A DNA stretch of 64,000 nt from an uncultured Candidatus Saccharibacteria bacterium (GTDB taxonomy: Bacteria > Patescibacteriota > Minisyncoccia > Phycocordibacterales > SBAW01), in contig CAZTNI010000002.1 in assembly GCA_964615415.1 (NCBI GenBank), positions 104,687-168,686 of the forward strand. Direction: 5' to 3'. How positions within the stretch are numbered: the stretch's first letter is position 1; every line of letters begins with the position of its first letter. The position numbers and the translations under genes were made by a program. The notes under the pieces were generated by a model, which had not been told where the DNA came from, ran no database searches, and saw nothing but the letters and a program-made list of their open reading frames with translations. Below, one piece after another: positions 6,289 through 30,495 of this stretch.

Positions 6289-6299
6289 GTTGTAGATGG

Positions 6300-8907: not shown

Positions 8908-8996
8908 ATTTTTATATAGTAACAGACGAAGTTGAGTAAACAGTCTTACTGCTCTAGATGAGCGTACGTGTATGTAAATGATGTTATGCTGAAGTT

Positions 8997-9491
8997 ATGC
9001 GCGAGAGAGGTTTTACTCTTATTGAGCTTTTGGTAGTCATCGCTATTATCGGCATTTTGGCAGGACTTGTGTTGAGTTCTCTGAGCACAGCGCGTACTAA
9101 CGCGCGGACCGCTGCTATTAAATCCGGTGTAAATGAATTTCGTAAATTAATGGAGTTCGAATATATAGCGACCGGGAGTTACACCAATTTAAATAAACTG
9201 TGGGTAGGAACGGGCACGTCTTGCGCGGCGCGCGGTTACGCAGGTGCATATGCAGCCAAAGCAGTTGAGATCTGCGAAAATTTGATAAATAATATCGGCA
9301 GTAGTGTGACGCTTGCGTTCCATACCGGAGTAGATACAGCGAGCGGATTCAGTAATGCAAGCCAGTATGCCATCATGGCTCGTCTGCCGAGTGGTACGTT
9401 TTATTGTGTTGGTTCGAGCGGCAAAACCTCTGATACAGAAAACGGTTCAGGCGGTGTGTGGGCGTCACCCGGGTGTTGGGGAAATCCGTAA
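8997..9491 (+). CDS. type IV pilin (prepilin-type N-terminal cleavage/methylation domain)
   Basis: MRERG|FTLIELLVVIAIIGILA is the class III signal peptide and N-methylation motif. Confidence 0.75.
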   Translation: MRERGFTLIELLVVIAIIGILAGLVLSSLSTARTNARTAAIKSGVNEFRKLMEFEYIATGSYTNLNKLWVGTGTSCAARGYAGAYAAKAVEICENLINNIGSSVTLAFHTGVDTASGFSNASQYAIMARLPSGTFYCVGSSGKTSDTENGSGGVWASPGCWGNP

Positions 9492-9511
9492 AATAATAAT
9501 CTTTATTACAT

Positions 9512-9910
9512 ATGTTGATAAAACTCTACGCTATTGCGCTGCCGATTTGTTTCCTGCTCGATTTGGTATGGATTGGGTTTGTTGCCAACGGTTTTTACCG
9601 CACACAGTTAGGTGAGTTGATGAAAACCAACATCACCTGGTCTGCCGCTATTAGTTTCTACGTATTGTTTATTATCGGCCTTGTCTTTTTTGTAATAGCA
9701 CCTGCAGTTGAAAAACAATCACTGCTGTACGCGCTCGGAGCGGGAGCATTTTTTGGGCTTATTGCGTACGCAACCTATGACCTTACTAACCTTGCCACAA
9801 TAAAAAACTGGCCGCTTATTGTTTCGATAGTAGATATGGTGTGGGGTGCAGTACTTGCAGCGATTGTGTCGGGGGCAACATATTTCATTGCCACAAAACT
9901 TCACTGGTAG
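9512..9910 (+). CDS. DUF2177-like membrane protein
   Basis: 132 aa with 4 TM helices; MLIKLYAIALPICFLLDLVWIGFVANGFY. Confidence 0.4.
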   Translation: MLIKLYAIALPICFLLDLVWIGFVANGFYRTQLGELMKTNITWSAAISFYVLFIIGLVFFVIAPAVEKQSLLYALGAGAFFGLIAYATYDLTNLATIKNWPLIVSIVDMVWGAVLAAIVSGATYFIATKLHW

Positions 9911-9914
9911 GTAT

Positions 9915-10424
9915 ATGCGGCGAGTTACCGTTAACGACAAGATGCAGCAAGGGTACCAGTACACCTGTACTGAACCAGTAGGAAAACATTTTGATCCGCG
10001 TTTTAAGCCCGAACTAACTCCTAAGCAAATGCTCGCGCTCGGTGTGTTTGGTGGTGTGTATATGCGCGACTGCACGAAAGAATTTCCGAAAGAGTGGTTT
10101 ACTAAAGCAAAGTTCCAAAAGAAGGGGAGTTATGAGCACGACCCAAAGCTCAATTACTTTAAAGTGAATGCAAGCCAGCCGCTTTCGGTCTGGCGTAAGA
10201 AAGGATGGATACATGCAGACGACCCGCGGGGTTGGTTTCAGTGGTACTGTCGATACTACATGGGACGACGAGGTCCGGACGACGAGCGACAAATTAAACG
10301 ATGGGTTGCGATCCGTCGACACATTATGCAAATTAAAAATCACTGCACAGTGGGTGATAAAAACTGCCACACCAAACAACGCCAAGCAGTACTTCATTGG
10401 GCGTACGATAGCAGGAAGATGTAA
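9915..10424 (+). CDS. conserved hypothetical protein
   Basis: Start set at MRRVTVNDK just after the upstream stop; W/Y-rich segment WFQWYCRYYMGRRG; family not recognised. Confidence 0.4.
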   Translation: MRRVTVNDKMQQGYQYTCTEPVGKHFDPRFKPELTPKQMLALGVFGGVYMRDCTKEFPKEWFTKAKFQKKGSYEHDPKLNYFKVNASQPLSVWRKKGWIHADDPRGWFQWYCRYYMGRRGPDDERQIKRWVAIRRHIMQIKNHCTVGDKNCHTKQRQAVLHWAYDSRKM

Positions 10425-10496
10425 AGCGTCTTCCTGATTTCTTCATGTTTCTTGGTATACCTTTATGCCGTTACTAAATAACGGTTTTTAAAAGGT

Positions 10497-11060
10497 ATGA
10501 ATAAGCAGACTATTATTGGTATTTTGGTATTTCTGGTGCTTGTGGCAGTAGGTGTGTGGTACTTCACTTCCGGTCCTTCAGTTACCCCTGAGGTTGAAGA
10601 AAATAATAATCAGACCGCTACAACAACTACCTCGGGCACGCAAAACTCAACGGGTGCTACTAGTGGTGCTACCCGCGGCACAGGTACGTTAAGTGCTGCT
10701 ATTACACGTGGCGGTAATTACACCTGCAGCGTCAACACTAATCGCGATGGTATTACAACAAAAGGTACGGTGTATGTTGAAGGAACTAAAACTCGGGTAA
10801 ATCTTCGCATCGAGCCGACAACAGGCGCACCAGTTGAAACACACGTTATTCGTACGGGTGGATGGGCGTACACATGGACTGAAGGTCAGACCACAGGAAG
10901 CAAGACTCGCGTTACTACTACCAGCGCTATCGTGCCTCAGGCACAGGGAGCAGGAAGTATTGTAGATGAGGGCGCTACCTTTGATTGGGAGTGTCGTGCA
11001 TGGATTCCTGATCAAGAAGAATTTACGCCTCCTACCCAAATTACTTTTACAGAAGCGTAA
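10497..11060 (+). CDS. secreted/membrane-anchored hypothetical protein (Thr/Gly-rich linker)
   Basis: N-terminal TM/signal segment, T/S/G-rich linker, then a C-terminal domain; terminator at 11065-11094. Confidence 0.4.
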   Translation: MNKQTIIGILVFLVLVAVGVWYFTSGPSVTPEVEENNNQTATTTTSGTQNSTGATSGATRGTGTLSAAITRGGNYTCSVNTNRDGITTKGTVYVEGTKTRVNLRIEPTTGAPVETHVIRTGGWAYTWTEGQTTGSKTRVTTTSAIVPQAQGAGSIVDEGATFDWECRAWIPDQEEFTPPTQITFTEA

Positions 11061-11171
11061 CAACAAAAACTCCCCGGTAGGGGAGTTTTTGTTTAATCCT
11101 GTTAAAAACTGTAGGTAAAGCGTAAAAATAATGGTATAACTACCAACGTATATTATTTTTTAAGATTTAGT

Positions 11172-11429
11172 ATGGCTACCAAAAAAGCTTCAGCGTTCAT
11201 GAAACCAATGACTATTAGTGGAGACCTCGCAGCAGTGGTGGGCAAGGGTCCTATGCCTCGCTCAGAAGTAGTAAAGAAGCTCTGGGCCTACATTAAGAAG
11301 AATGGCCTTCAAGACGCAAAGAATAAGCGCAACATTAATGCTGACGATACTCTCAAGAAAGTATTCGGTGGCAAAAAGACAGTCAGTATGTTCGAAATGA
11401 CAAAACTCGTTTCGAAGCACCTTTCCTAA
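11172..11429 (+). CDS. SWIB/MDM2-domain protein
   Basis: 85 aa; KRNINADDTLKKVFGGKKTVSMFEMTKLVSKHL is a typical SWIB motif. Confidence 0.6.
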   Translation: MATKKASAFMKPMTISGDLAAVVGKGPMPRSEVVKKLWAYIKKNGLQDAKNKRNINADDTLKKVFGGKKTVSMFEMTKLVSKHLS

Positions 11430-12203
11430 TTGCGAATGGAAAAACGGGCGAACAACGAAACATCATGGGGCAAGGTGGCTGACTGGTATGGCGAGTATTT
11501 AGCCAACCCAGACAGCTACCAGGCTCAAGTGGTGCTTCCTAACCTTATGCGCATGCTTTCAGTTACGGCTGGAGAGCGCGTGTTGGACCTTGCTTGTGGG
11601 CAAGGTTTTTTCACAAAAGAGATACACAAAGCGGGGGCGAATGTTGTTGGTGCAGATATTTCGGAAGAGTTAGTTGCTGATGCGCGTCGGAATGTTCCAG
11701 GCGTAACCTTTTACGCTGCGCCTGCGTCCCAACTTTCGTTTGCAAAAAATAACGAGTTTGATGCAGTGGTGTGCGTATTGGCTCTCCAAAATATGGAAGA
11801 CCTGAGCGCTGTATGTAAAGAAGTGTCACGAGTATTGGAGCAAAAAGGCCGCTTTCTGATGGTGCTTAACCATCCGGCATTTCGTGTACTCAAGCGCTCA
11901 AGTTGGGGGTGGGACGAAGGGCTTGGGGTACAGTATCGTCGCGTCGACGGGTACCTCTCGGGGGCAAAAATAGAAATAGATATGCATCCGGGTAAAAGTG
12001 GTAAAAAAGTGAAAACAATTTCCTACCATCGCTCGCTCCAAGATTTTTCAAAAGCATTATTTGCTGCTGGGTTTGCTTTGACACGCTGCGAAGAGTGGAT
12101 TTCTCATAAAATCAGCGAACCAGGTCCACGCCAAAAAGCGGAAGATACAGCGCGCAAAGAATTTCCTCTTTTCTTAACACTTGAGGCTCGCAAACTCTCA
12201 TGA
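11430..12203 (+). CDS. class I SAM-dependent methyltransferase
   Basis: VLDLACGQGFF SAM motif I; 257 aa. Confidence 0.6.
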   Translation: MRMEKRANNETSWGKVADWYGEYLANPDSYQAQVVLPNLMRMLSVTAGERVLDLACGQGFFTKEIHKAGANVVGADISEELVADARRNVPGVTFYAAPASQLSFAKNNEFDAVVCVLALQNMEDLSAVCKEVSRVLEQKGRFLMVLNHPAFRVLKRSSWGWDEGLGVQYRRVDGYLSGAKIEIDMHPGKSGKKVKTISYHRSLQDFSKALFAAGFALTRCEEWISHKISEPGPRQKAEDTARKEFPLFLTLEARKLS

Positions 12204-14527: not shown

Positions 14528-15790
14528 ATGAAAGTATATGCATATGCAAATTCACTTCGGGAATATGCGCGCATTCTTGCGGTTGCTGCAGTAGGTGTTG
14601 CGGCAGCTTGTATAGCGCTGCCGGCAGCTCAGGCACAAGTAGTCCCTACTGTATCAGCAGAGATACGTAACGCTTCAAATAATACTATTACCAGCAGTCC
14701 TGTGGGTGCTATGGTGCATCTTCGTGCGGTAGTAGCCTCCTCGACCTCATCTACGTCTCCGCAAGGAACGGTAGATTTTATTCGCTACGAAGGAGCAACG
14801 TGTAGTGGCACGGGTACTTCCTTCGAGTCTAATACGACTCTCAATGGAGGCGTAGCACTTTCCGACGCTTTTCCGGCACAGCTTTCGAACACGTCGTTCC
14901 GTGTCCACTATGACGGTCAAGGCGACATGTTTGCACAAGCAACCAGCTCCTGTGTGTCACTTCAAGTCACACAGTTTGATCCGGCACTCGCTCTATCACT
15001 TTCAAGTTCGACAATTCATGCCGGAACATCAGTGTATGCATCTTCAACCTTGAGTAGTGCTACATCGACTGCAGACGGGACACTGACGTACCGTGTGTAC
15101 ACCAACAATTCGTGCACCAACCTCTATGCACAAGCAGGAGTTAAAACGGTAACGAATACAAATATTCCGGGTTCAGATGCTATTCAGTTCAACACCCCGG
15201 GTACGTACTACTGGCAAGGCGTCTACAGTGGTGATGCAGAAAACGAAGCGGCAACGAGTACCTGCAGCAGCGGTATGCTGACTGTTCTTGCAACATCGTC
15301 TACGCCAACCACGACGGGTAACGGCACCATTAGTGGTACGGTATATCACGACAAAAACGGTAACCGCACGTACGATAGTGGTGACACTGGTCTCTCGGGA
15401 TTCACCGTCTGGCTCTTTAAGTTGCCAACCAAACACTACAAAGCAGAGTACGCATTCAAAACAGCGGTCTCTGACACCAACGGTAATTACAGCTTCGCTA
15501 ATCTTCCTGATGGTACCTATCGTGTAGAATTGCACGAACAGAAGAAAAACGGATGGAATCAGAAAACGTCTGACTATAAGTCGATCAGTATTCAAAACGG
15601 GTCTGACCTCGACGATATAGACTTCGGTAATGCATCAACTACCGGCAAAGGTAAAGACAAAGATAAAGATGACGACAAGTGGCGTGGTGGGTGGTGGTCA
15701 TGGGGCGGATGGGTTCGCGATAATAACGCTTCAACAAGTGTAAAAGATTTCCTGGAGCATCTTCGCGAATGGAAATGGAACTGGCGCTAA
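14528..15790 (+). CDS. secreted repeat protein with C-terminal SdrD-B/CnaB-like domain
   Basis: Signal peptide; Ser/Thr-rich Ig-like repeats; GTISGTVYHDKNGNRTYDSGDTGLSGFTVWL...DTNGNYSFANLPDGTYRV; odd KDKDKDDDKWRGGWWSWGGW tail. Confidence 0.5.
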   Translation: MKVYAYANSLREYARILAVAAVGVAAACIALPAAQAQVVPTVSAEIRNASNNTITSSPVGAMVHLRAVVASSTSSTSPQGTVDFIRYEGATCSGTGTSFESNTTLNGGVALSDAFPAQLSNTSFRVHYDGQGDMFAQATSSCVSLQVTQFDPALALSLSSSTIHAGTSVYASSTLSSATSTADGTLTYRVYTNNSCTNLYAQAGVKTVTNTNIPGSDAIQFNTPGTYYWQGVYSGDAENEAATSTCSSGMLTVLATSSTPTTTGNGTISGTVYHDKNGNRTYDSGDTGLSGFTVWLFKLPTKHYKAEYAFKTAVSDTNGNYSFANLPDGTYRVELHEQKKNGWNQKTSDYKSISIQNGSDLDDIDFGNASTTGKGKDKDKDDDKWRGGWWSWGGWVRDNNASTSVKDFLEHLREWKWNWR

Positions 15791-18361: not shown

Positions 18362-19777
18362 TTACAGAACCTGCGCACGGGAGCGAATCTCGGCGAAGGT
18401 GTATTCATGGAGTACTTTCCCGTTTACAAACACCGGCACCAGCACGTTCTCGAGGTTTTGAACAATCGCATCTTCCTCGCGGATCGTGCGGTAGGTGCCG
18501 TCTTCCTCGACGAGAGCCAGTCGACCGGCCTTCGAGCGCTTGCCCGGGTCGGTCACGGGGTCCTTGATCACGTCGTGCCAGGTACCGTCGACATCGACCG
18601 CAGAGCATTTGATCGCGAACTTCTGCGTATCGCGATTCATATTCTGCAGTAGTCCGCCGCCGGAGCCGAACGCAACGTTGTCTGCAGACCAGCCCGCCTC
18701 CTTCATCGCTTCGAGTACGACACCGAGCATTGTGTAGTCGATGCCGTCGCCCTGGATGACACGCACCTTCGGGTTGAGGACCTTGTACCCCTTCTCGTTG
18801 GTGGTGTATCCGAAGGCACTGCCGAGTGCTTCGAGCACCTTCACGACGACATCGGGCGGATTGCCCGAGTCCGGGCGTACCACTAGGGTGCCGTCGCGGG
18901 CCAGGACCTGCTCACGCAACTCCTTGCCCCAGAGCTCGGTGCATGCCCGGTAGATGTCGAAGCTGTCAGAGACGACAGCGACGAGGCCGGTCGGGTACTG
19001 TTCGAGCATGTTGCGGTACGCGTCCGCCTCCTTGTTGCGACCCCACGAAGTAATTGTGGAGTGCTCCGCAGCGGGGATCGAGTATCCCGCCATCGGCTCG
19101 TGGTAGTACTTGCGCGCGACACGAGTCGCCTGGAGCGTGTCGGTGCCGCGGAAGGAAACCAAGTGTGCGGCGCCGCCGAGGCCCGCGGACTCGACCGAAG
19201 TCGAACCGCGGAAGCCGAAGTCGTGGACCTTGAAGTCGATCAGCGCAGGAGTACCGGTCTGCTCCAGATAGGAGAGGACTAATCTCCGCATCTCACGGCT
19301 CTGAGTCGCCACGGTGGTGGGGTACCAGAGCATCGAGAGTAGGGTCTCGACATAGTTGGTGATCCACGGTAGTTCCGGATCCGTATTTTCGATCGTCATC
19401 AGCACGTTGCGGGTCGGAACCGAAATTCCTTCCGGCACTGCCTTGATGATGACCGGCAGCCGTCCGCCGTGAACGTTCAGGATACGATCCCATCCGTCAC
19501 GGTTGTAGACGCCCGGAGTGCCGAAGTGTGCAGCAAAATCTTCTGCCGCTTCCTCGACATTCTGCCGGTTGACGACCGGACCCTCGAGATACCGCTTGAG
19601 ATAGTACTGCAGTCCAAAGAAGGTGGTGCTCGCAAAGAGGCCACCCCGGCTTTCGAAGAAGGAATACACCTTCCTCGTTTTGGGCGGGTACTGCCGCCAG
19701 TGCGAGACCTTGTAGCTGTCGGTCAACTCGACCGTATTGACTTCGTCTTCGACGAAGAGGCGAGGATTGTAGTTCAT
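18362..19777 (-). CDS. nadV: nicotinamide phosphoribosyltransferase (NadV/Nampt family)
   Basis: NPRLFVEDEVNTVELTDSYKVSHWRQYPPKTRKVYSFFESRGG Nampt signature; start at the internal Met with an AAGGAG RBS; ~470 aa. Confidence 0.85.
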   Translation of the reverse strand: MNYNPRLFVEDEVNTVELTDSYKVSHWRQYPPKTRKVYSFFESRGGLFASTTFFGLQYYLKRYLEGPVVNRQNVEEAAEDFAAHFGTPGVYNRDGWDRILNVHGGRLPVIIKAVPEGISVPTRNVLMTIENTDPELPWITNYVETLLSMLWYPTTVATQSREMRRLVLSYLEQTGTPALIDFKVHDFGFRGSTSVESAGLGGAAHLVSFRGTDTLQATRVARKYYHEPMAGYSIPAAEHSTITSWGRNKEADAYRNMLEQYPTGLVAVVSDSFDIYRACTELWGKELREQVLARDGTLVVRPDSGNPPDVVVKVLEALGSAFGYTTNEKGYKVLNPKVRVIQGDGIDYTMLGVVLEAMKEAGWSADNVAFGSGGGLLQNMNRDTQKFAIKCSAVDVDGTWHDVIKDPVTDPGKRSKAGRLALVEEDGTYRTIREEDAIVQNLENVLVPVFVNGKVLHEYTFAEIRSRAQVL

Positions 19778-19802
19778 GAGAGTGTCTCCTTTTGTATTGC
19801 GA

Positions 19803-20756
19803 TTACCGGTGCCGTAAGGCTTCCAGGTCATCGAGCATGGGTTGGACAGACGTTTTCCTTGCAGATTCCGTAAGATGCTCAGTCAGCATCTCACCAAACG
19901 CTTGGTGTCCGGGTTGAAGCACTGCAAGTAGCTTGTCGTACGGAATCCAAGCAAGGTGTGCGATATCGTCTGCGGGGCAGGGAGTCCCGGAGACATACGT
20001 TGCCGCGAAGAGAGTACTCATGATGACGTCTCCTGTGCCGCGGTAGCGCCAGTCGTCAACAACGCGCGAGCCTACAAAGCGGATGTTGGCGAGCGTAGGT
20101 AGTGAAGTTTCTTCCCTGGCTTCGCGCAGGGCTGCTTGTTCAAGAGATGCGTCAGTCGTGTCGACAAACCCGCCGATAAAGCGGTACTTGTCGCCGTCAC
20201 TCACCTTTGCCCCGAGCAAGACTTCTTGTCGGGCCGGATTGAGGATGGCGATGTCGACCGCAGGGTAGGGAATAGGAAAGCGATTTTCCTGCGTGTGAAT
20301 CACTCCCCGTCTGAATGCTGCTGAGCGCAAGATGCGTTTTGAAGTTTTGCGGCGATACTCGGTGCCGCTTTGCGCATCAATCTTCGGCACTTCAACGACA
20401 GTGTTTCCTCCACTGTAGTAGGGGATGAACGAGTCTCGAGATCCGTAGAGCACGGCGTTTGCGGCGGGGAACGTTTTCGCGATCAATGCATCGAGATTCT
20501 TACTCCACTCTTCGTTTGAAGGGTGGTCATAGAGTGGGGCAATATGCGCGTGCGGATATGCCGTGCGCACCATTGCTTCGCGCATTACATACGAGAGAGG
20601 ATTCTTCTTGGTGGGGAAGGCCTCGGTCGCGCCGATCAAGATCAACAGCTGGTCGTGGCGTGCAGCAACGTAGTCGAGAAGATAGCGGTGGCCAGCGTGG
20701 AGAGAGGCTACTTGAAAGCGGCCAATTACCACGCCAACGCTGGTTCGTGTGTGCAT
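19803..20756 (-). CDS. nadM: bifunctional NMN adenylyltransferase / Nudix hydrolase (NadM-Nudix)
   Basis: GVVIGRFQVASLHAGHRYLL cytidylyltransferase HxGH motif; C-terminal Nudix box GGFVDTTDASLEQAALREAREETSL; start moved to MHTRTSVG, which has a GGAG RBS. Confidence 0.8.
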   Translation of the reverse strand: MHTRTSVGVVIGRFQVASLHAGHRYLLDYVAARHDQLLILIGATEAFPTKKNPLSYVMREAMVRTAYPHAHIAPLYDHPSNEEWSKNLDALIAKTFPAANAVLYGSRDSFIPYYSGGNTVVEVPKIDAQSGTEYRRKTSKRILRSAAFRRGVIHTQENRFPIPYPAVDIAILNPARQEVLLGAKVSDGDKYRFIGGFVDTTDASLEQAALREAREETSLPTLANIRFVGSRVVDDWRYRGTGDVIMSTLFAATYVSGTPCPADDIAHLAWIPYDKLLAVLQPGHQAFGEMLTEHLTESARKTSVQPMLDDLEALRHR

Positions 20757-20797
20757 GTTATTTCTCCATGTTGTTAAAGAACCTCCCGTTCGATTAG

Positions 20798-20818
20798 TTA
20801 GTGTTATTAATACACTAA
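20798..20818. promoter_or_regulatory. NrtR-type operator TTAGTGTTATTAATACACTAA (21-bp palindrome, GT-N7-AC core)
   Basis: Perfect 7-bp inverted arms TTAGTGT/ACACTAA with a 7-nt AT spacer, 42 bp upstream of the nadM start. Confidence 0.6.
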
Positions 20819-20861
20819 CATTAGGTAAAAAAATAAGCCTTTTTACCCTATCGTACGAGAC

Positions 20862-20882
20862 TTCGTGTATCTTATACACTAA
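20862..20882. promoter_or_regulatory. second NrtR-type operator TTCGTGTATCTTATACACTAA
   Basis: Same 21-bp layout with one arm mismatch; 64 bp from the first site, in the ARH-nadM intergenic region. Confidence 0.5.
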
Positions 20883-20950
20883 CAAAACAGAAGTCAAGTC
20901 GCGCTGTGGATAAGAAAAACCCCGGCTTCTGTGAGCCGGGGTGAGTGTCG

Positions 20951-21970
20951 TTACGCGAACTGTTGATTATCGGGACGAAAGAGCTGGGCTTTGTTGAACA
21001 AGGCTACGCCCAGCTCGGTCATTTTCTCGCGTCCATGCAGCACCTTAAGCCATTGCTCCGGAATCCCGCCAATGCCGTAGCGAAGTCCAAGGAGCCCGCC
21101 CGCAATTGCGCCGTAGGTGTCGACGTCGCCGCCCACAGAAATTGCCTTGATGATGCCGTTGGCAAAGCTGGTGGCAGTGACTGTTGCCCATACTGCGACA
21201 CGCAACGAGAGTACCACGTCGCCCTCATGGCCCTGAATGTTGAGGTTGTAGTTGGGGCTGGTAAGGGGAAGAGAGGTGACATATTTGACTGCATCTGCTT
21301 CAAGGTGCGGAACATCTGAGAATTTGCGCGCAAGTCTGCAAGCATCTTCCCATGCATTGCGTGGTTCGATGCCGTAGAGCAGTAGGTTGGCCATGATGCT
21401 GTAGATCGCGCACGAAGCAATTGCGAGACCGTTGCGGTGAGTCACCCACGACTGTTCGGCGCCCAGCACTGCTGCTTGGCGAGCGTCGCCTCTTGCGGCA
21501 AGAGGTGCTGCAATACAGCGCATAAGGCTCCCGTTGCTTGCTGGAGTAGGAATGTTTCCTGCGGCAAACTCCGCGATAGACTCTGCGTGAGTTGCCGGTC
21601 TCAGTGCTGCTCGTAGTGTACTGCCGCTGCCATACGCGACCTTGCCGAGGATGGGCCTGCGGCCATGGATGAACGCACGCAAGTGGTCGTATACGAGAGA
21701 TGCAGAAAAGTCGTCTGCGGCGAGTAGGGCAGAGGCAAGGTAGGCAGCAAGCTCAGAGTCGTCGGTCGGCTGCCCTGCCTCCATGAGAGTCTGGCCCAAC
21801 TTCCCCGGAGGATCGAAGGGTTTGTAGTCATGGAAGACCAATCCGCCACGTGCTATGTCGGCAGCAATGTACGCATCGCTCTTCCATTCGTACGGTGCGC
21901 CGAGTGCGTCACCGCAGGTAGTGCCGACCATGGCACCAACAAAACGATCAAGTGTTTCTTTTTCAAACAC
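20951..21970 (-). CDS. ADP-ribosylglycohydrolase family protein
   Basis: MFEKETLDRFVGAMVGTTCGDALGAPYEW...GQPTDDSELA are ARH (DraG-like) signatures; 339 aa. Confidence 0.8.
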   Translation of the reverse strand: MFEKETLDRFVGAMVGTTCGDALGAPYEWKSDAYIAADIARGGLVFHDYKPFDPPGKLGQTLMEAGQPTDDSELAAYLASALLAADDFSASLVYDHLRAFIHGRRPILGKVAYGSGSTLRAALRPATHAESIAEFAAGNIPTPASNGSLMRCIAAPLAARGDARQAAVLGAEQSWVTHRNGLAIASCAIYSIMANLLLYGIEPRNAWEDACRLARKFSDVPHLEADAVKYVTSLPLTSPNYNLNIQGHEGDVVLSLRVAVWATVTATSFANGIIKAISVGGDVDTYGAIAGGLLGLRYGIGGIPEQWLKVLHGREKMTELGVALFNKAQLFRPDNQQFA

Positions 21971-22051
21971 GAATGTTTCCTTTCTTGTTGAGAATAACTT
22001 CCAAACCGACTATAGCAACAGCGCTGAAGAGTGTAAAGCAAACACTAATTG

Positions 22052-22750
22052 TTACAGTACTTCTATTTCGTGCACTTTTGGTGAGGTGAACTTATAGAGT
22101 TGTGCGGGGCGGAAGCGGCCGCCAGTGCGCTTGCGAGGGAGTTCAGTCACGATTTTTAATTTGTGAATTTTTTTACGGAAATTTCGCTTGTCGAGGTCAG
22201 CATGCAAAATACTTTCGTACGCTGATTCAAGTTCGGTTAGTGTAAATTCCTCTGGCATAAGTTTACTCATGAGGGTGGTGTAGGTAACGCGCGAGCGAAG
22301 GCGTTTAAGGGCAATGTCGAGCATCTCGTCGTGGTCGTAGGCAAGTGACTTTGCGTCTTGAACGCGCGCCCACCACGCATCTTGAGAATCTCCTTGTTCG
22401 GCGGTCGAAAGAGCGTCCCATGGTATAAACCCGCTGTACGCTACAGCGACAACACGGCCGCGAGGGTCGCGACTTACTTCACTAAAGGTATAGAGTTGCT
22501 CGAGATAAATCTTTTTTGATGAGACTCCCGCTTTTTCTTCAAGCAGGCGCTTCGCTGCTTCTTCAGCAGTTTCTTTCGGGTGGATAAGGCCGCCGGTAAA
22601 TGCAGCAGAGTTGGGGAAGTGGGGAGGGCGATGTACTGAAACAAGACGCACAAGGAGTTCGTTGTCGCGAATAGTAAAAAGCACCACGTCGGATGCGATA
22701 ACTGCAAACCGCAAATGGGCAGGCGCAAGAGAGGTTTTTGCCTTTTTCAT
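22052..22750 (-). CDS. nrtR: Nudix-related transcriptional regulator NrtR (Nudix domain + C-terminal winged-helix)
   Basis: N-terminal Nudix-like domain (FAVIASDVVLFT...TGGLIHPKETAEEAAKRLLEEKAGV); C-terminal ~90 aa wHTH; sits at the head of the nadM/nadV/ARH operon with matching palindromic operators. Confidence 0.7.
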   Translation of the reverse strand: MKKAKTSLAPAHLRFAVIASDVVLFTIRDNELLVRLVSVHRPPHFPNSAAFTGGLIHPKETAEEAAKRLLEEKAGVSSKKIYLEQLYTFSEVSRDPRGRVVAVAYSGFIPWDALSTAEQGDSQDAWWARVQDAKSLAYDHDEMLDIALKRLRSRVTYTTLMSKLMPEEFTLTELESAYESILHADLDKRNFRKKIHKLKIVTELPRKRTGGRFRPAQLYKFTSPKVHEIEVL

Positions 22751-22807
22751 ACATGTATTATAGCAGCAGTATAGATATTGTCAAGAGTACACTTATCAAC
22801 ACCTAAG

Positions 22808-22828
22808 TTAGTGTAAACTTGACACAAA
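22808..22828. promoter_or_regulatory. NrtR-type operator-like site TTAGTGTAAACTTGACACAAA
   Basis: Left arm perfect, right arm 6/7; lies in the nrtR / J-pseudokinase divergent intergenic region. Confidence 0.4.
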
Positions 22829-22860
22829 ACAAGTGCGGGTGTAGAGTCCGATATAGATAG

Positions 22861-22881
22861 TAAGTGTAGCAAATACACTTA
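22861..22881. promoter_or_regulatory. NrtR-type operator TAAGTGTAGCAAATACACTTA (perfect 21-bp palindrome)
   Basis: 8-bp perfect inverted arms with GT-N7-AC core; 46 bp upstream of the 22927 gene and 111 bp upstream of nrtR. Confidence 0.55.
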
Positions 22882-22926
22882 TAAACAAAGATCTTTCACA
22901 ACAGCAAAAACGCTAGGAGGTGGCGC

Positions 22927-24081
22927 ATGAGTAGCGTCGACGCAGTTGAACAGGTGCTCGCAAAACTCACTACCGCAACCACGTTCGTAGCGGTCTTCGG
23001 ATCGCTCCCAACGGGCGATGTGCGAGAAAAGCGAGGCGCGCTGCGCAAGCAGTTTGCGTACTTGGTTAATCTGGTACATCCAGACCACGTGCCGCCGATT
23101 ATGAAAGATCGTGCAGGCGAAGCGGTGCAACGACTTACCGACCTGCATGCTGCAGCGAAAGTTGCGGTCGATGCGGGAAAGTATGAGGTGCCGTTTGCTG
23201 CTGGGTCGACCGTGTCGCCCAAGTCGGCAGAAGTGGTGCTGCAATCACCGACCGCGACATATCGCCTTTCCGGTAATCCGTACAAGGAAGGAGACTTCTC
23301 GGTACTCTATCGGGGTAGTGTGGTTGGTACTGGACACGACGTGATCATAAAGATCGCCAGTGTTCCCGCACACAACACGTACCTCGAAGCAGAAATCAGA
23401 ACGCTGAAGAAATTCAGTGGCGCTGATCCTGTCTCGCCTGTCGGTAAGATAGGCCGGTTTGTGCCACGAGTGCTCGATACGTTTCTGGTGTCTGACGAAG
23501 ACAACCGGCGTGTGCGAGCAACAGTGCTTCCGTATCTCGATGGCTACGTGGCAGTGAGTGACATCATTGGCGCGTTCCCAAACGGGCTCGACCCACGAGA
23601 CGCTGCATGGATTGCCCGGCGACTGCTTGCACAAGTGCTTGCGGCGCAGGCTATCAAGGTGGTGCATGGGGCGATCGTTCCTGACCACCTGTTGGTGTCA
23701 CTTCATTCGCACGACCCGCTGCATATCGGGTGGGTGCACGCGATCGAGGACCCAGCGACTACCGGCAAGCGCATCACTCAGGTGATCGACCGCTATCGCG
23801 AGTGGTATCCGGAAGAAGTCTTCCACAAGGAAGTGCCTGACTTCCGGACTGACCTCTACATGGCCGGGAAAACTATCATCAAGCTTTTGGGTGGCGACGT
23901 AAGGCGGAATACATTTCCGACAAGCGTTCCCGACCAACTGAAGCGCATCATTCTTCGGTGCGTTGAAACATCTCCCGCGCGCAGGCCAAGTAACGGCATG
24001 CAGTTCCTCGACGAGTTCACAAGCGTCGTCAGGAATGTGTGGGGGAAGGCGTGGCGACCTCTTTCGATGCCGCCACGTTAA
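22927..24081 (+). CDS. J-domain (HPD) + kinase-like domain protein (predicted pseudokinase)
   Basis: N-terminal FVAVFGSLPTGDVREKRGALRKQFAYLVNLVHPDH aligns to a DnaJ J-domain including HPD; kinase-like GDFSVLYRGSV...DVIIKIAS...LEAEIRTL; catalytic-loop position reads VVHGAIVPDHLL (no catalytic Asp); AGGAGG RBS. Confidence 0.55.
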   Translation: MSSVDAVEQVLAKLTTATTFVAVFGSLPTGDVREKRGALRKQFAYLVNLVHPDHVPPIMKDRAGEAVQRLTDLHAAAKVAVDAGKYEVPFAAGSTVSPKSAEVVLQSPTATYRLSGNPYKEGDFSVLYRGSVVGTGHDVIIKIASVPAHNTYLEAEIRTLKKFSGADPVSPVGKIGRFVPRVLDTFLVSDEDNRRVRATVLPYLDGYVAVSDIIGAFPNGLDPRDAAWIARRLLAQVLAAQAIKVVHGAIVPDHLLVSLHSHDPLHIGWVHAIEDPATTGKRITQVIDRYREWYPEEVFHKEVPDFRTDLYMAGKTIIKLLGGDVRRNTFPTSVPDQLKRIILRCVETSPARRPSNGMQFLDEFTSVVRNVWGKAWRPLSMPPR

Positions 24082-24120
24082 AATCGCTTATGAGCAACCA
24101 GAAGAAAAGGAGTACTCCAC

Positions 24121-25158
24121 ATGGGTGGCGGTACCTTTGATTCAAGTGCCTACCGCGCAGCAGCTGCTGCGCGTGCGAGTGCCGGCGTCGACGACTTCGA
24201 CTATGACCGCAAGGTTAAGTCGGGCGTCGTGTCTGGCATTCATGCAAGCCTCGACCCGAAGACGGTCGCGGGCGCAACCAGTCCTCTCGCGGGAAAGAAT
24301 GTCCGCGAGAGTCGCGACAACGATGAGCATCCGAACTCGATCCCGATCGCTGTCTTCTTCGACGTCACGGGTTCGATGCATCGTGTGCCTGTCGTGCTCC
24401 AGAAGAAGCTCGCGACGCTGATGGACGTGATCATCGCCAAGGCCGGCATCCCCGACCCGCAGGTTCTGGTCGGCGCTATCGGCGACTCGAGTCCGTACTA
24501 CGGGCGTGGTATGACCGACCAGTATCCGTTCCAGGTCGGGCAGTTCGAGTCGGACAACCGCTTCGACGACGCTCTGCGCAACATCATCCTCGAGGGCGGA
24601 GGCGGCGGGCAGGTCATGGAGTCCTATGGACTTGCATACCGCTTCGCCGCTCACCACACGGCAACCGACGCGTGGGACAAGCGCGGCAAGAAGGGCTACC
24701 TCTTCACCATGGGTGACGAGGCCTTCTGGCCCACGATCACTTCTGGCGAGCTGAAGCAGATCTTCGGCGTCGAGGATGCGGCGGATGAATCCGTTGCGGA
24801 TCTCTATGCCAAGGCCTCGGAGCGCTGGGAGATCTACCACATCGCTATCACCGCCGGCACGTCGCACGGCGGCAACACCGCCATCCACGACAAGTGGCGT
24901 GCTCTGCTCGGCGAGCGCTTCATCAAGCTCGACGACGCAGACCTCGTCTGCGAGGTGATCGCCGGTATCGTGCACATGCTCGAAACGGCGAACGACCTCG
25001 ACAAGGTCGTCGGCGACATCGGCCTCTCCGGCCGGGCGGCAACGAGTGTGAAGAACGCACTCGTTCCCGTATCGGGCGGCCGCGTCCCCGGTCACCTCGC
25101 GAAGGGGAATCTCCCCAAGCGGCGTGACAAGGGCGCGGGCGGTGTGAGCGCGATCTAG
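24121..25158 (+). CDS. von Willebrand factor A (vWA) domain protein with MIDAS motif
   Basis: IAVFFDVTGSM (DxTxS MIDAS) plus downstream T and D residues; 345 aa; ~62% GC; AAGGAG RBS; terminator at 25181-25214. Confidence 0.6.
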   Translation: MGGGTFDSSAYRAAAAARASAGVDDFDYDRKVKSGVVSGIHASLDPKTVAGATSPLAGKNVRESRDNDEHPNSIPIAVFFDVTGSMHRVPVVLQKKLATLMDVIIAKAGIPDPQVLVGAIGDSSPYYGRGMTDQYPFQVGQFESDNRFDDALRNIILEGGGGGQVMESYGLAYRFAAHHTATDAWDKRGKKGYLFTMGDEAFWPTITSGELKQIFGVEDAADESVADLYAKASERWEIYHIAITAGTSHGGNTAIHDKWRALLGERFIKLDDADLVCEVIAGIVHMLETANDLDKVVGDIGLSGRAATSVKNALVPVSGGRVPGHLAKGNLPKRRDKGAGGVSAI

Positions 25159-25180
25159 TATCGCCTCTATACACAAACCT

Positions 25181-25214
25181 ATGGCTGGACGGTATACCCG
25201 CCCAGCCATTTTTC
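25181..25214 (+). terminator. intrinsic terminator separating the vWA gene from the purA-like gene
   Basis: ATGGCTGGACGG-TATAC-CCGCCCAGCCAT + TTTTTCT. Confidence 0.65.
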
Positions 25215-25233
25215 TCACCGAAAGGAGAACGAC

Positions 25234-26577
25234 ATGAGTAACAGAAAAGCGACTATCGTCGTCGGACTCGGGTTCGGTGACGAAGGTAAGGGAACAACCG
25301 TCGACTACCTTGCTCGACAGAACGACGTGTCGGCAGTAGTTCGCTTTAACGGCGGCGCACAAGCCGCACATAACGTGGTGACTCCCGATGGGAAGCATCA
25401 TACGTTCCAGCAGTTCGGGAGCGCATCGTTTCTGCCGCGGGTACGCACGCATCACTCTCGTTTTATGGTGCTCGACCCGCTTGCTCTTGCGAACGAGGCG
25501 AAACATCTGGCGGAAATTGGATGCGGCAATGTGTTCGCTCGACTTTCGGTCGACGAACAAGCGCTCGTGGTGTCGCCCTTCCACAAGGCGGCGAATCGCA
25601 TTCGCGAAGTGCTTCGAGCGAAGGGTAAGCATGGCAGTGTTGGTATGGGTGTGGGCGAGACGGTTGGCGACTCGATCGCATTTCCGGAGTACGCACTCCA
25701 TGCACGCGACTTGCGAGACCGTGCAGCAATTCTTTCTCGCTTCAAGTTCTTTCAGAATATGAAGCAAGGAGAATTTCGGGAACATCTCTCCGACCTTGCG
25801 AGTAATCCGCATATACAAGAAGAAGTGAAGATCCTTGCGGATCCGGATATGCCTGCGCTACTCGCCGACTTGTACTACCGGGTAGCCATGCGCTTTCCTA
25901 TCGTCGATGGAAACTACCTTGCGCGACTCGCACGCGAGGGAAGTCTTATCTTCGAAGGGGCGCAGGGAGTACTGCTTGACGAGTGGTATGGGTTCCATCC
26001 CTACACCACCTGGAGCACAACGACGTTTAGAAATGCACTGACTCTCTTGCGAGAAATCGGCTACGAGGGTCATGTGGAAAAGCTCGGTGTGCTCCGTGCG
26101 TACTCGACGCGCCACGGTGCCGGTCCCTTCCCGACGGAAGATCCGAATCTTGGCATGTTGGTGCCGGAGCTGCATAACGGCATTGGGCCGTGGCAGGGCG
26201 GCTTCCGTATCGGCTGGCCGGACCTGGTGCTCGCCCGGTACGCGCTCGCGGTTGCGGGTGGGGCAGACGCACTTGCGATCACGCACCTCGACCGCTTCAT
26301 GCCGCTTACTCGTAAAAAAGTCGCGGTACGCTACCAAGTTCGCGACACGACTGTTGCTACTCTGCAGCCGAAAGAGCACCTTACTGATCTGGTCTACCAA
26401 GAGCAGCTCATGGGGCTCGTATCTCGTGCTACTCCGCAGTATGAAGATATTGCTCCGGGGGAAGCAGCGTACCTACAATTCCTCGAGCGACGGCTCTGCG
26501 TGCCGATCGCGCTTACCTCGCACGGCATGACGTATCTCGATAAACGTTCCCGTTCTATGGTAAGAGCGGCAGCATGA
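25234..26577 (+). CDS. adenylosuccinate synthetase (PurA) family protein, divergent paralog
   Basis: GLGFGDEGKGTTVDYL, FNGGAQAAHNV, FEGAQGVLLD and GVLRAYSTRHGAGPFPTE match PurA; canonical GTTGRGIGP reads GSVGMGVGE and GATTGRRRR reads GPWQGGFRIGWPD. Confidence 0.7.
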   Translation: MSNRKATIVVGLGFGDEGKGTTVDYLARQNDVSAVVRFNGGAQAAHNVVTPDGKHHTFQQFGSASFLPRVRTHHSRFMVLDPLALANEAKHLAEIGCGNVFARLSVDEQALVVSPFHKAANRIREVLRAKGKHGSVGMGVGETVGDSIAFPEYALHARDLRDRAAILSRFKFFQNMKQGEFREHLSDLASNPHIQEEVKILADPDMPALLADLYYRVAMRFPIVDGNYLARLAREGSLIFEGAQGVLLDEWYGFHPYTTWSTTTFRNALTLLREIGYEGHVEKLGVLRAYSTRHGAGPFPTEDPNLGMLVPELHNGIGPWQGGFRIGWPDLVLARYALAVAGGADALAITHLDRFMPLTRKKVAVRYQVRDTTVATLQPKEHLTDLVYQEQLMGLVSRATPQYEDIAPGEAAYLQFLERRLCVPIALTSHGMTYLDKRSRSMVRAAA

Positions 26578-26596
26578 GTTCTTTGTTCTACGTACT

Positions 26597-26630
26597 AAGC
26601 CCTGCTACGCGCAGGGCTTTTCTTTTTGTA
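26597..26630 (+). terminator. intrinsic terminator after the purA-like gene
   Basis: AAGCCCTGC-TACGC-GCAGGGCTT + TTCTTTTT. Confidence 0.7.
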
Positions 26631-28608: not shown

Positions 28609-29388
28609 TTAAAACTCTGGGTAGGCGGGGCGACGCATTCTTTTATAGAGACGCCACAGACCGTAGAGGAACAGTACTGCAAAGAGCGGGTAGAAAATAG
28701 CCGCGTTTGAAATCAAGTATTTCAGAATATTGAAGAGGTGGAGGAGAAGGGTCGCAGCGATGGTCCAAATCGTGCCCACAATACCCCCGTCTTCTTTTGT
28801 GTCTTGTGCGCCAGCGATACTACCCGACGAGGTTGCTTTCTTTTTTGTCGCTTGTTCTTCAGCCCACGCAATGCCTTTATCGATTGCACTGACTGCAGAA
28901 TTGCGCACTGAGTCGATTCCGGAAAATACAGGAGTCGCTGCTTGTGCAACGCCGGGCGAAAGGTTTGCGAGTTGTGCCTGAATATCCTCAGACGACTCTA
29001 CGATTGTCGGCTCGTTTGAGTCTGGTTTTGGCTTTTCCTGAATACGAAATGTTGCAGACTGCTTTTCGGCTACCTCTCCGTCGGTTGCAGTAAGAGTAGC
29101 TTCAATGGTGTGCGAACCAGCAACCGGCTTCCACGACACAGACACGGCTTGTGCTTCTTGGGCGGCAAGAGTAACCGGCACCGTACCGATTTTCACATCG
29201 CCTTCTTTCAGAATAAGAGTGCCGGTAAACGCCTCTATGTTTTCGTTCGACACCACGGCGTGGATAAGCACGGTTTCTCCTTCTGTCACTGCGTTGCGAG
29301 AAAGAAAGAGCGACTGTTTGCTAAACCCGGCAGCAAAGGTAAGGGTAGGGAGCGCAAAAAAGACGAGCGCAATGAACAGCTGTTTCAT
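28609..29388 (-). CDS. membrane hypothetical protein (signal peptide + C-terminal TM)
   Basis: Start set to MKQLFIALVFFALPTLTFA; C-terminal TM helices. Confidence 0.4.
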   Translation of the reverse strand: MKQLFIALVFFALPTLTFAAGFSKQSLFLSRNAVTEGETVLIHAVVSNENIEAFTGTLILKEGDVKIGTVPVTLAAQEAQAVSVSWKPVAGSHTIEATLTATDGEVAEKQSATFRIQEKPKPDSNEPTIVESSEDIQAQLANLSPGVAQAATPVFSGIDSVRNSAVSAIDKGIAWAEEQATKKKATSSGSIAGAQDTKEDGGIVGTIWTIAATLLLHLFNILKYLISNAAIFYPLFAVLFLYGLWRLYKRMRRPAYPEF

Positions 29389-29430
29389 ATACACCCAGTA
29401 TACCCCACGCACGCGTGCTACAATTTTTGC

Positions 29431-30495
29431 ATGCGCAAGGTTTTGCACAAGCTGCGACAGTACTTTTTTCCGTCGCATCATAATGCGTACCGGCCTCATA
29501 TTCTAAAAAAACAGTGGCTCCTCTTTTTTCTTACGATGGTACTTACTGCGGAAGCAGTCTTTGTAGGAGGCGCGCTACTAAAACAAACGGGGATACAGTT
29601 TCTTGCTGCGGTACTGCCGGGAGAGATTATTGCGTTCACTAATACCGAACGCTCAGGAGTGGCCGTGGGTACGGTAGTTGAATCTTCGCTGCTTTCAAAA
29701 GCTGCGCAAGCTAAAGCGGAAGACATGGCAGCAAAAGGATATTTTTCGCATGTTGGGCCGGATGGCAAAGAGCCGTGGGTATGGATAGAAGAAGCAGGAT
29801 ACAGCTACACGTATGCAGGAGAAAACCTGGCAGTCCGATTTTTAGACTCTCATCAAGTAGTTGATGCGTGGATGGCGTCCCCAAGCCACCGCGCAAACAT
29901 TGTAAAAGGGCAGTACACCGAAATCGGCGTAGGTGTTGCAGAAGGTATGTATGAAGGCCAACCTGCAACGTATGTGGTGCAGTACTTTGGCACGCCGCGT
30001 GTTGCAGCAGTTGCACAAGCCGCTGAACCAGTCTCCACTCCTGCGTCGGTTGTTGATGAAGAAGAGACCGTTTCTGCACCAGTAATTCCAGAACCTGAAG
30101 TGCAAGGTGTCGCAACGCCAGTTGTTACAGAAATTGTGCCAGACGTCGAGCTGCCGGCTGCCGTTGAGTCGCAAGGAGGAGTGGAAGCATATCTGCGCGC
30201 TGTCTTTGAAGGAATTATGCGTGCAGATACATCCGCGCTATGGCTTATCGGCGGCATAGCGGCGCTGCTGGTGGTCGCACTTCTGCTAGCATTCTTTATA
30301 CATCTCCAAGTGCAACCGACCGATATGTTAATGAGCGGAGCAACTGTTGCAGCAATTGCGATAACACTGCTTGCGATTAATGCGTACTATGTGCGACCTG
30401 GGGGAGTTGATACGCCGCTCGGTGCTTCTGTTGCGACGGCGCTCCCAGAAGGCGTGGTGGGCGACAGTGCTGCATTTGCGGAGGCATCCTTTTAA
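29431..30495 (+). CDS. CAP/SCP (YkwD-like) domain protein with C-terminal TM
   Basis: GYFSHVGPDGKEPWVWIEEAGYSYTYAGENLA...WMASPSHRANI are CAP-domain motifs; start at MRKVLHK; alternative starts possible. Confidence 0.5.
   Translation: MRKVLHKLRQYFFPSHHNAYRPHILKKQWLLFFLTMVLTAEAVFVGGALLKQTGIQFLAAVLPGEIIAFTNTERSGVAVGTVVESSLLSKAAQAKAEDMAAKGYFSHVGPDGKEPWVWIEEAGYSYTYAGENLAVRFLDSHQVVDAWMASPSHRANIVKGQYTEIGVGVAEGMYEGQPATYVVQYFGTPRVAAVAQAAEPVSTPASVVDEEETVSAPVIPEPEVQGVATPVVTEIVPDVELPAAVESQGGVEAYLRAVFEGIMRADTSALWLIGGIAALLVVALLLAFFIHLQVQPTDMLMSGATVAAIAITLLAINAYYVRPGGVDTPLGASVATALPEGVVGDSAAFAEASF

Follow-up and report, generated by a model that had tools for sequence, protein, structure and literature searches.

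The stretch under study is a window of 64,000 nucleotides (positions 104,687 to 168,686 of contig CAZTNI010000002.1) from an uncultured Candidatus Saccharibacteria bacterium, and the element of interest is a set of three consecutive plus-strand genes within it, divergent from a gene for the repressor NrtR and encoding, respectively, a protein with a J-domain and a kinase-like domain (J-pseudokinase), a von Willebrand factor A (vWA) protein and an enzyme resembling adenylosuccinate synthetase (PurA). Several described systems can be set beside this locus. The combination of a vWA protein, a kinase and a PP2C phosphatase is a described theme, and the TerY-P triad (the vWA protein TerY, a Ser/Thr kinase and PP2C) has adjacent vWA and kinase-fold genes, as the operon does. 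The operon differs in having no PP2C gene, a kinase-like domain that is inactive by canonical criteria and fused to a J-domain, and an obligate PurA-like partner. An earlier reading of the sequence (hereafter, the original prediction), which had flagged the first two genes as a pair recalling TerY-P-type triads, had already remarked on the missing phosphatase; indeed, no PP2C gene was found at the window locus or at the annotated loci L002, L004-L006, L088 and L089. The absence of a PP2C gene and of a kinase active by canonical criteria led to the rejection of the TerY-P triad as a match; the partners are different as well.

In the MoxR AAA+/vWA systems (CbbQ-CbbO, NorQ-NorD, CoxD-CoxE, RavA-ViaA), a cytoplasmic vWA protein with a metal ion-dependent adhesion site (MIDAS) is encoded beside a presumed client enzyme and a chaperone-ATPase factor. 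The likeness to the operon would be one of logic only: the latter has no AAA+ gene, would make use of the host Hsp70 by means of a J-domain, carries this J-domain fused to a pseudokinase and has a PurA-like partner. No MoxR-type AAA+ gene was found beside the module in the window, at L002-L006 or at L089; the AAA_5/VWA_CoxE pair located ~4 kb upstream of the module at L088 is unrelated.

The NrtR regulons of NAD metabolism (Rodionov et al. 2008, as cited in PMC9503650) share with the locus the position of nrtR beside its targets, the 21-bp palindromic operators lying on promoters and the co-regulation of NAMPT and NMNAT-Nudix genes, whereas the J-pseudokinase, vWA and PurA-like genes are absent from the described NrtR targets that were found; a literature search for NrtR together with adenylosuccinate returned nothing. 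The nearest published theme is that of the ARG-centred systems predicted by Iyer et al. 2022 (PMC9503650, section 3.8), which are regulated by NrtR or WYL proteins, include vWA 'chaperones' that would bind peptides and, in the prediction of that paper, are induced by ADP-ribose. As described there, they resemble the locus in the Nudix-HTH repressor, the nearby ADP-ribosylglycohydrolase and the vWA protein; in that section, they are presented as ARG plus a phosphatase, with no mention of a PurA-like enzyme or a J-pseudokinase. The two enzymes of the phage pathway NARP2 (NAMPT and NMNAT) belong to the same regulon here and to the same clusters in some jumbo-phage contigs (L122, L164), and the three genes are not included in NARP1, NARP2 or NARP3 as presented in the published descriptions consulted, according to which NARP3, considered as a match to the module, is unrelated. 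According to one genome note, which contains no functional study, all C1 mycobacteriophages share a conserved kinase and a conserved "PurA-like adenylosuccinate synthetase". No description of a J-pseudokinase/vWA/PurA-like module was found in the literature. On the whole, the module lacks the defining features of TerY-P triads, MoxR-vWA systems, active kinases and PurA equivalogs, and has those of the J-domain, of the vWA fold and of an NrtR regulon.

The proposed three-gene operon and its distribution

The region 22752-26619 is proposed to be one NrtR-repressed three-gene unit, which would represent a conserved module of the candidate phyla radiation (CPR), Chloroflexota, Actinomycetota, Planctomycetota and many large phages, and in which the PurA-like enzyme would be coupled to Hsp70 by the vWA protein and the J-pseudokinase. 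Taken as a whole, this proposal is evenly poised between acceptance and doubt; our confidence in the identity of the module and in its regulation is high. The two open reading frames (ORFs) flagged in the original prediction exist as described there (Table 1); they are separated by 39 nt (40 bp had been given), and AAAGGAG precedes the ATG of the vWA gene, in agreement with the ribosome-binding site attributed to it. The two-gene unit suggested on that occasion was too short, because it left out the PurA-like gene, which lies directly 3' of the vWA gene and is its most constant partner. The PurA-like gene is in turn followed by a predicted intrinsic terminator, so that promoter and terminator enclose exactly three genes. 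The hairpin lying between the vWA and PurA-like genes might possibly act as an internal attenuator. The closest relatives of all three proteins are found in Patescibacteria/CPR (Kaiserbacteria, Kerfeldbacteria).

In order to evaluate the linkage among the three genes, 80 GTDB species genomes retrieved with the vWA alignment were scanned together with 80 IMG/VR contigs, whose length is in many cases 100-437 kb. The genomes represent Patescibacteria, Nocardia, Nocardioides, Williamsia, Mycobacterium, Kutzneria, Streptomycetaceae, Chloroflexota, Planctomycetota and some Proteobacteria. The PurA-like gene is located directly downstream of the vWA gene in 74/80 genomes; as for the viral contigs, it is present at the same locus in 79/80 and directly downstream of the vWA gene in 71/80. 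Among the genomes, 44/80 have a kinase-like gene, as do 62/80 of the viral loci. On the basis of these counts, the core of the module is represented by the vWA and PurA-like genes, the J-pseudokinase being a frequent third and more dispensable member. Loci without a PurA-like gene share no common substitute gene. The search for further conserved partners by all-against-all clustering of neighbouring ORFs disclosed lineage-specific synteny only, with the clustering swamped by overlapping spurious ORFs in high-GC loci.

The same arrangement recurs in distant genomes. Five distinct loci, retrieved for three divergent CPR kinase homologues, contain kinase-like, vWA-like and Adenylsucc_synt genes in a row, and tblastn disclosed homologues of both flagged proteins in ~200 Cluster C mycobacteriophages; in one of them, Dandelion, the order (kinase gp267, vWA-like gp268, a small ORF and "PurA" gp270) is the same as in the window. 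The vWA-PurA-like pair is found without a kinase-like gene in Vibrio phage phiKT1024 and Rhizobium phage RHph_TM39, beside NADAR, or phosphoribosyltransferase and NMNAT/Nudix genes. The co-occurrence of J-kinase and vWA genes near nrtR in other organisms, for which the original prediction had suggested looking, was observed in CPR, Actinomycetota and some viral contigs.

These counts bear on the possibility that the first two genes form a self-contained signalling pair, related to TerY-P, with the PurA gene as an unrelated neighbour. Here, as in many genomes and in the described triads, vWA and kinase-fold genes stand next to each other; however, the closer linkage of the vWA gene is with the PurA-like gene and not with the kinase-like one, many loci contain vWA and PurA-like genes but no kinase-like gene, no PP2C gene exists among the loci whose called genes were inspected, and the catalytic Asp is missing in 231/231 kinase-like relatives. 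This explanation, disfavoured by the linkage counts, appears very improbable.

The abundance of the genes in viruses raises a different question. At least 222 IMG/VR contigs contain a member of the vWA-like family, and many of these contigs are 100-437 kb long. In four viral contigs of jumbo size (L122, L150, L159, L164), the three genes are interleaved with those for NrtR, NAMPT and NadM in a single co-directional cluster, whose gene order differs from the bacterial one. In L122 (416,539 bp, viral by its IMG/VR listing), the co-directional order within 5228-11608 is NrtR, vWA, NadM, NAMPT, PurA-like, kinase-like. It may be that the phage genes counter NAD+-depleting immunity through an undescribed branch of NAD+ reconstitution or of ADP-ribose/nucleotide repair, and that the bacterial copy, induced by ADP-ribose, performs the same rescue. 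This idea overlaps with, and is compatible with, the proposal given above, and further commits to a role in conflict and to an NAD-related product. It agrees with the viral distribution just described, inclusive of the ~200 Cluster C mycobacteriophages, with the NADAR, phosphoribosyltransferase and NMNAT/Nudix genes near the pair in cultured phages, with the NrtR control in bacteria and with the fact that NAD+ reconstitution is, according to the published accounts consulted, an established phage strategy. On the other hand, PADLOC recognized no system at the locus, giving weak matches to generic kinase models only (mad6, MkoA, PD-T4-6) and having no model for the vWA-like protein; the NARP1, NARP2 and NARP3 pathways are published without these genes, as far as those accounts go; and most viral loci have no NAD gene within 6 kb. 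We regard a role in conflict as possible, although rather unlikely.

The three proteins

The PurA-like protein passes the Pfam domain model PF00709 (Adenylsucc_synt) with 229 bits (1e-67), but it remains far below the equivalog cut-offs of the NCBIfam PurA models (181 vs 402 bits and 163 vs 395.55 bits) and of PurZ (37 bits vs 300). Its identity to gp270 of phage Dandelion is 43%, and solved PurAs are matched at E 1e-36 or weaker (phmmer). In E. coli PurA, Val273, Thr300, Thr301, Arg303 and Arg305 form the L-aspartate site, Asn38, Thr129 and Arg143 hold the IMP 5'-phosphate, Asp333 specifies guanine, and Asp13, His41 and Gln224 are catalytic. The subfamily members (77 bacterial and 82 viral) were aligned to an E. 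coli PurA sequence whose motif positions agree with the published numbering. What they have in common with PurA and PurZ is the fold, the P-loop (GDEGKG), the residues Asp13, Lys16, His41 and Gln224 (kept in 75-77/77 bacterial and 81-82/82 viral members), and also Thr239 and Asp333. By contrast, the aspartate pocket is replaced: Val273 is changed to His (100%), Thr300 to Trp/Tyr/Phe, Thr301 to Gln and Arg305 to Phe/Trp/Leu, and Arg303 is deleted (100%). The contacts with the IMP 5'-phosphate are replaced as well (Asn38 to Gln, Thr129 to Cys/Val, Arg143 to His/Phe/Gly), and Lys331 is changed to His/Cys. As judged from the sequences, the subfamily is probably not an adenylosuccinate synthetase, and confidence that it has lost the use of aspartate is fairly high. 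The GTP-dependent phosphoryl activation would survive, with a nucleophile that would no longer be aspartate and an acceptor that may not be IMP; there is a substantial chance that the chemistry of the enzyme is new.

All public names for the subfamily read "adenylosuccinate synthase". The gene of phage Dandelion (L001, 7283-8611) is annotated as '2-aminooxy adenylosuccinate synthetase / PurA'; since it scores 54 bits against the PurZ cut-off of 300 and 145 against the PurA cut-off of 402, neither name is justified. PurZ, i.e., an enzyme of 2-aminoadenine synthesis, was considered on account of the name in this one phage record and was rejected, the scores being 37-54 bits vs 300 and the aspartate pocket being absent.

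The uniform naming, the PF00709 match and the retention of D13, H41 and Q224 would all be expected if the operon served ordinary purine salvage, that is, if the third gene coded for a real adenylosuccinate synthetase regulated or stabilized by the products of the two upstream genes, with NrtR tying the supply of AMP to NAD synthesis. In Kaiserbacteria, moreover, PurH and IMPDH genes adjoin the operon. Against this stand the 181 bits vs the cut-off of 402, the replacement of the aspartate pocket in every member examined and the greater closeness of the protein to a phage homologue than to any solved PurA. In addition, the same subfamily occurs in Nocardia, Mycobacterium, Streptomycetaceae and phages, and free-living actinomycetes should carry a canonical purA elsewhere. 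Purine salvage is therefore considered improbable.

Taken alone, the 384-aa protein encoded by the first gene gave no Pfam match at E ≤ 0.1, and the Pfam and NCBIfam scans of both flagged proteins yielded no usable match. Its relatives are more informative: 32/52 aligned family members match Pfam DnaJ (best E 8e-5), and a profile of residues 1-92 compared with PDB sequences retrieves mainly J-domains, with DNAJA3 as the best match (1.5e-7) and with E. coli DnaJ (1.4e-5), CbpA, auxilin and HscB among the others, all the matches down to E ~0.2 being J-domain proteins. When hhalign was run against an alignment of seven J-domain sequences, HPD was placed on HPD with a probability of 96.7%. The H51-P52-D53 triplet (HPD) is invariant in the 49-sequence alignment and is present in ~94% of 231 relatives, and in the AlphaFold model (pLDDT 93.7) it connects helix II (32-50) and helix III (57-82). 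Thus, the J-domain recognized in the original prediction is confirmed by family matches, profile, alignment and model, and the recruitment of Hsp70 through the HPD is plausible.

The rest of the protein has the fold of a eukaryotic-type kinase according to Foldseek, whose top matches are TNIK, MAP4K4, Aurora and PknB (E ~1e-11), while the search of PDB sequences with the single window proteins gave marginal kinase matches only. A different fold with an intact active site, which had been indicated as the outcome contrary to a J-domain-pseudokinase fusion, was not seen, and the fusion is supported. A profile search of 1.84 billion cluster representatives retrieved 1,420 relatives at E ≤ 1e-30; since nearly all of the 150 relatives listed are 340-400 aa long and align with the profile over its full length, the combination of a J-domain with a kinase-like domain is a fixed architecture. 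As anticipated, the beta3 Lys (K142) and the helix-C Glu (E156) are kept (97% and 98% of 231 members, respectively), the catalytic Asp is absent and the DFG motif is degenerate; what did not hold is the intact Gly-rich loop, which reads EGDFSVLY and not GxGxxG, G122 being its sole conserved Gly. The catalytic loop reads HGAIVPDH, the position of the HRD Asp being occupied by A, S or G in 231/231 relatives and that of the catalytic-loop Asn by His254 (94%). In place of DFG, the CPR members, the window protein included, have IGW, and those of actinobacteria and phages have [IV]DW; across the family, 58% of the members carry Gly and 39% Asp at the DFG position, and the CPR members lack both metal-binding residues. 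By these canonical sequence criteria, the whole family consists of pseudokinases.

The site is nonetheless strongly conserved (H247 in 99%, H254 in 94%, H262 in 95% and W269 in 97% of 231 members), and these near-invariant residues could leave room for ligand binding or unusual chemistry. The domain might be an active atypical enzyme or a small-molecule sensor, in which His247, His254, His262 and Trp269, together with Lys142-Glu156, would bind a nucleotide (e.g., ATP, ADP-ribose or NAD) or transfer it onto the vWA or PurA-like protein. Such a function would account for the conservation (94-99%) of a 'dead' site and for the DFG Asp kept in the actinobacterial and phage members, and a precedent for a repurposed pseudokinase exists in SelO, which performs AMPylation. 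The lack of a catalytic-base Asp in every member, the degenerate Gly-rich loop and the missing metal-binding residues of the CPR members make it unlikely. In an uncultured Actinomycetota metagenome-assembled genome (L078, 5023-6957), kinase-like and vWA-like profile matches fall within a single 645-aa stop-to-stop ORF. This may be a natural kinase-vWA fusion, which, if real, would support the physical association of the two proteins.

The 345-aa protein has the Rossmann-like vWA fold, and its closest homologue in CPR shares 79% identity with it. The DxTxS variant D81-V-T83-G-S85 and, after beta4, the pair G198-D199 are invariant in 48 homologues, and the middle Thr of the MIDAS motif was not located; at the sequence level, the invariant residues would fit the intact MIDAS previously attributed to the protein. 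The base composition of the gene is peculiar. The anomaly from which a horizontal acquisition had been suggested is real (63.5% GC, with a GC content at third codon positions, GC3, of 0.80, vs 57% GC in its neighbours), but it is not evidence for a recent acquisition of the vWA gene alone, because the gene sits in a context conserved in CPR. The entire 18-27 kb block is GC-rich with respect to the window mean of 50.6%. Even inside this block, the NAMPT and vWA genes are outliers, the other regulon genes having a GC3 of ~0.60 and nrtR of 0.48; either mosaic replacement or codon bias could be responsible for the high GC3 of these two genes.

Predicted control by NrtR

The divergent region between nrtR and the operon is 176 bp long and contains three NrtR boxes (A, B and C in Table 1). 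The palindrome of box C, already noticed in the original prediction, is exact and ends 45 nt ahead of the J-pseudokinase ATG (46 bp had been given). At ≤3 mismatches, three sites were observed in the window vs 0.11 expected; at ≤4 mismatches the sites are seven, six of which are located in intergenic regions of NAD genes (two upstream of nadM-nadV, one on the promoter of the ADP-ribosylglycohydrolase (ARH) gene and three between nrtR and the operon). The seventh, at 10690-10710 (TAAGTGCTGCTATTACACGTG, four mismatches), is the only one outside the NAD gene cluster and is probably a chance match. A different motif taken as an NrtR site, TAGT-N14-ACTA, has no match. To judge from the box that overlaps its predicted promoter, the ARH gene seems to have an NrtR-controlled promoter of its own, separate from that of nrtR.

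The operon is closely preceded by boxes within three mismatches of TTAGTGTA-N5-TACACTAA in 11/14 CPR and 8/8 Chloroflexota loci and in 0/62 viral ones; in the CPR loci, there are 4.19 such boxes per kb ahead of the operon vs 0.11 per kb elsewhere. The position of the repressor gene varies among the organisms: in Kaiserbacteria and in another CPR genome (L006), nrtR and the operon are transcribed divergently, it is the first gene of a co-directional NrtR, kinase-like, vWA-like, PurA-like operon in two Actinomycetota, and in most Nocardia loci a weak Nudix/NrtR-like gene lies straight 3' of the PurA-like gene. The in-operon nrtR and the recurrence of the boxes in CPR and Chloroflexota speak for the earlier claim that these genes answer to NrtR, and the predicted membership of the operon in the NrtR regulon is well supported. 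By homology to characterised NrtR proteins, the response would be to ADP-ribose.

Proposed working, neighbouring genes and meaning

The following working may be envisaged for the three-gene unit. The breakdown of NAD+ would yield ADP-ribose, upon which NrtR would leave the three operators covering both -35 boxes and the early transcribed region, and the operon would be induced along with NAMPT, NMNAT-Nudix and ADP-ribosylglycohydrolase. The PurA-like protein would be the catalytic effector, which, with GTP as the donor, would phosphorylate an oxo group of a substrate resembling a nucleotide; it would not bind L-aspartate, nor, probably, a plain 5'-monophosphate, and its product would not be adenylosuccinate. 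The vWA protein might be the obligate partner or adaptor of this enzyme, binding a protein ligand via its MIDAS, and the J-pseudokinase an adaptor that would bring DnaK/Hsp70 to the complex via the HPD. Such a logic would be like that of the MoxR AAA+ proteins acting with vWA adaptors on Rubisco, NO reductase and CO dehydrogenase, with Hsp70 in the place of the AAA+ ATPase; this activase analogy is speculative, and so would be any specific chemistry. Both the contact among the three proteins and the type of reaction are our inference. In its most explicit form, the idea is that a repurposed PurA-type enzyme uses GTP to drive a novel reaction on a purine or NAD-related nucleotide, with a non-aspartate nucleophile, and is activated or targeted by the Hsp70-coupled vWA protein and J-pseudokinase, the three forming an unrecognised NAD/ADP-ribose module widespread among jumbo phages, mycobacteriophages and several bacterial phyla; it is put forward tentatively, with somewhat more doubt than trust.

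Some points weigh against the proposed three-gene module. In 6/80 genomes the vWA gene has no PurA-like neighbour. Most Nocardia loci are without a kinase-like gene, so that the core function cannot depend on the coupling to Hsp70. The hairpin between the second and the third gene, which is weak, might partly uncouple the latter. As for the enzyme, the residue roles are those of E. coli PurA, transferred by alignment, and in CPR genomes the PurA-like gene could still be the sole PurA homologue. Lastly, the conservation of K142, E156, H247, H254, H262 and W269 could mean ligand binding or non-canonical catalysis and not a passive adaptor.

The features of the locus are reported in Table 1.

Table 1. 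Position, strand, basis of assignment and base composition of the features at the NrtR locus
Feature	Coordinates	Strand	Basis	GC (%)	GC3
Salvage operon nadM-Nudix + NAMPT (nadV), same regulon	18362..20756	-	Pfam matches; NrtR boxes upstream at 20798-20818 and 20862-20882		
NAMPT gene	18362-19831	-	Pfam	59.3	0.76
NMNAT-like/Nudix (nadM) gene	19803 to ~20756	-	Pfam		
ADP-ribosylglycohydrolase (ARH) gene	20951..21970	-	Pfam ADP_ribosyl_GH 2.5e-47		
Predicted ARH promoter (TTTACA, 17 nt, TATAGT)	22009-22037	-			
NrtR-like box overlapping the predicted ARH promoter	22028-22048		4 mismatches		
nrtR, Nudix-like sensor + winged-helix DNA-binding domain, divergent from the operon	22052..22750	-	Pfam NrtR_WHD 8e-23, NUDIX 1.4e-10; NCBIfam ADP-ribose-responsive repressor 1.4e-38, below equivalog cut-off		0.48
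Predicted nrtR promoter (TTGACA, 16 nt, TG-TATAAT; 12/12)	22757..22784	-	Consensus scan; -35 overlapped by box A		
NrtR box A (ATATTGTC-AAGAG-TACACTTA), one degenerate half-site, on the nrtR -35	22775..22795		Motif scan; conserved at nucleotide level in L005 (Kaiserbacteria) and in L006 (another CPR genome)		
NrtR box B (TTAGTGTA-AACTT-GACACAAA), one degenerate half-site, on the operon -35	22808..22828		Motif scan; conserved in L005, L006		
Predicted operon promoter (TTGACA, 17 nt, TAGAGT; 10/12)	22819..22847	+	Consensus scan		
NrtR box C, perfect palindrome (TAAGTGTA-GCAAA-TACACTTA), just 3' of the predicted transcription start	22861..22881		0 mismatches; equivalent box in L005		
J-domain (aa 18-89, ~nt 22978-23193) + pseudokinase domain (aa ~100-384), 384 aa	22927..24081	+	Window ORF list; profiles, hhalign, AlphaFold model, Foldseek	57	~0.60
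Cytoplasmic vWA protein, predicted MIDAS + disordered, basic C-terminal tail (aa 322-345), 345 aa	24121..25158	+	Window ORF list; homologue alignment, structure model, PHROG 2971 1e-68	63.5	0.80
Hairpin, 12-bp stem, then TTTTTCTC on the + strand, between vWA and PurA-like genes	25181..25209		Sequence; terminator scan accepted - strand only		
PurA-like GTP-dependent enzyme, 447 aa	25234..26577	+	Pfam PF00709 1e-67; NCBIfam PurA 181 bits vs cut-off 402; 43% identity to Dandelion gp270	57	~0.60
Predicted intrinsic terminator closing the operon	26597..26619	+	9-bp stem, 6 G-C pairs, then T tract		
Flanking genes				~46-50	~0.50

The presence of UvrABC, TGT, BipA, MsrA and similar genes elsewhere in the window indicates that it belongs to a bacterial chromosome. 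The ORF call of the NMNAT-like/Nudix gene (19803-20897, minus strand) begins at a TTG at 20897, and the extension contains both NrtR boxes located upstream of the salvage operon; the true start is probably the ATG at 20756, giving ~317 aa, near the 313 aa of the homologue in Kaiserbacteria. The gene shares positions 19803-19831, at its 3' end, with the beginning of NAMPT. Three ORFs of secreted or surface type were also observed, i.e., a GH18 chitinase-like protein with a peptidoglycan-binding domain (7414-8907, minus strand), an SdrD B-like repeat protein (14528-15790) and a CAP-domain protein (29110-30495); they fit a cell-associated CPR lifestyle and have no relation to the operon.

As for the meaning of these findings, the operon extends the NrtR regulon, and NAD/ADP-ribose metabolism, a field now centred on phage-host conflict, would gain from it a novel enzyme activity and a novel route of Hsp70 recruitment. 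It also flags a large subfamily uniformly mis-named "adenylosuccinate synthase", so that, if this is true, thousands of database entries are mis-annotated; similarly, the product labelled "serine/threonine kinase" in ~200 mycobacteriophages cannot be a conventional kinase. The module is compact, consisting of three genes, and is carried by Nocardia and by Bxz1-like phages growing on M. smegmatis, i.e., by systems that can be cultivated, which makes it directly testable. For the CPR bacteria, whose metabolism is poorly understood, it provides a testable operon that would be responsive to ADP-ribose.

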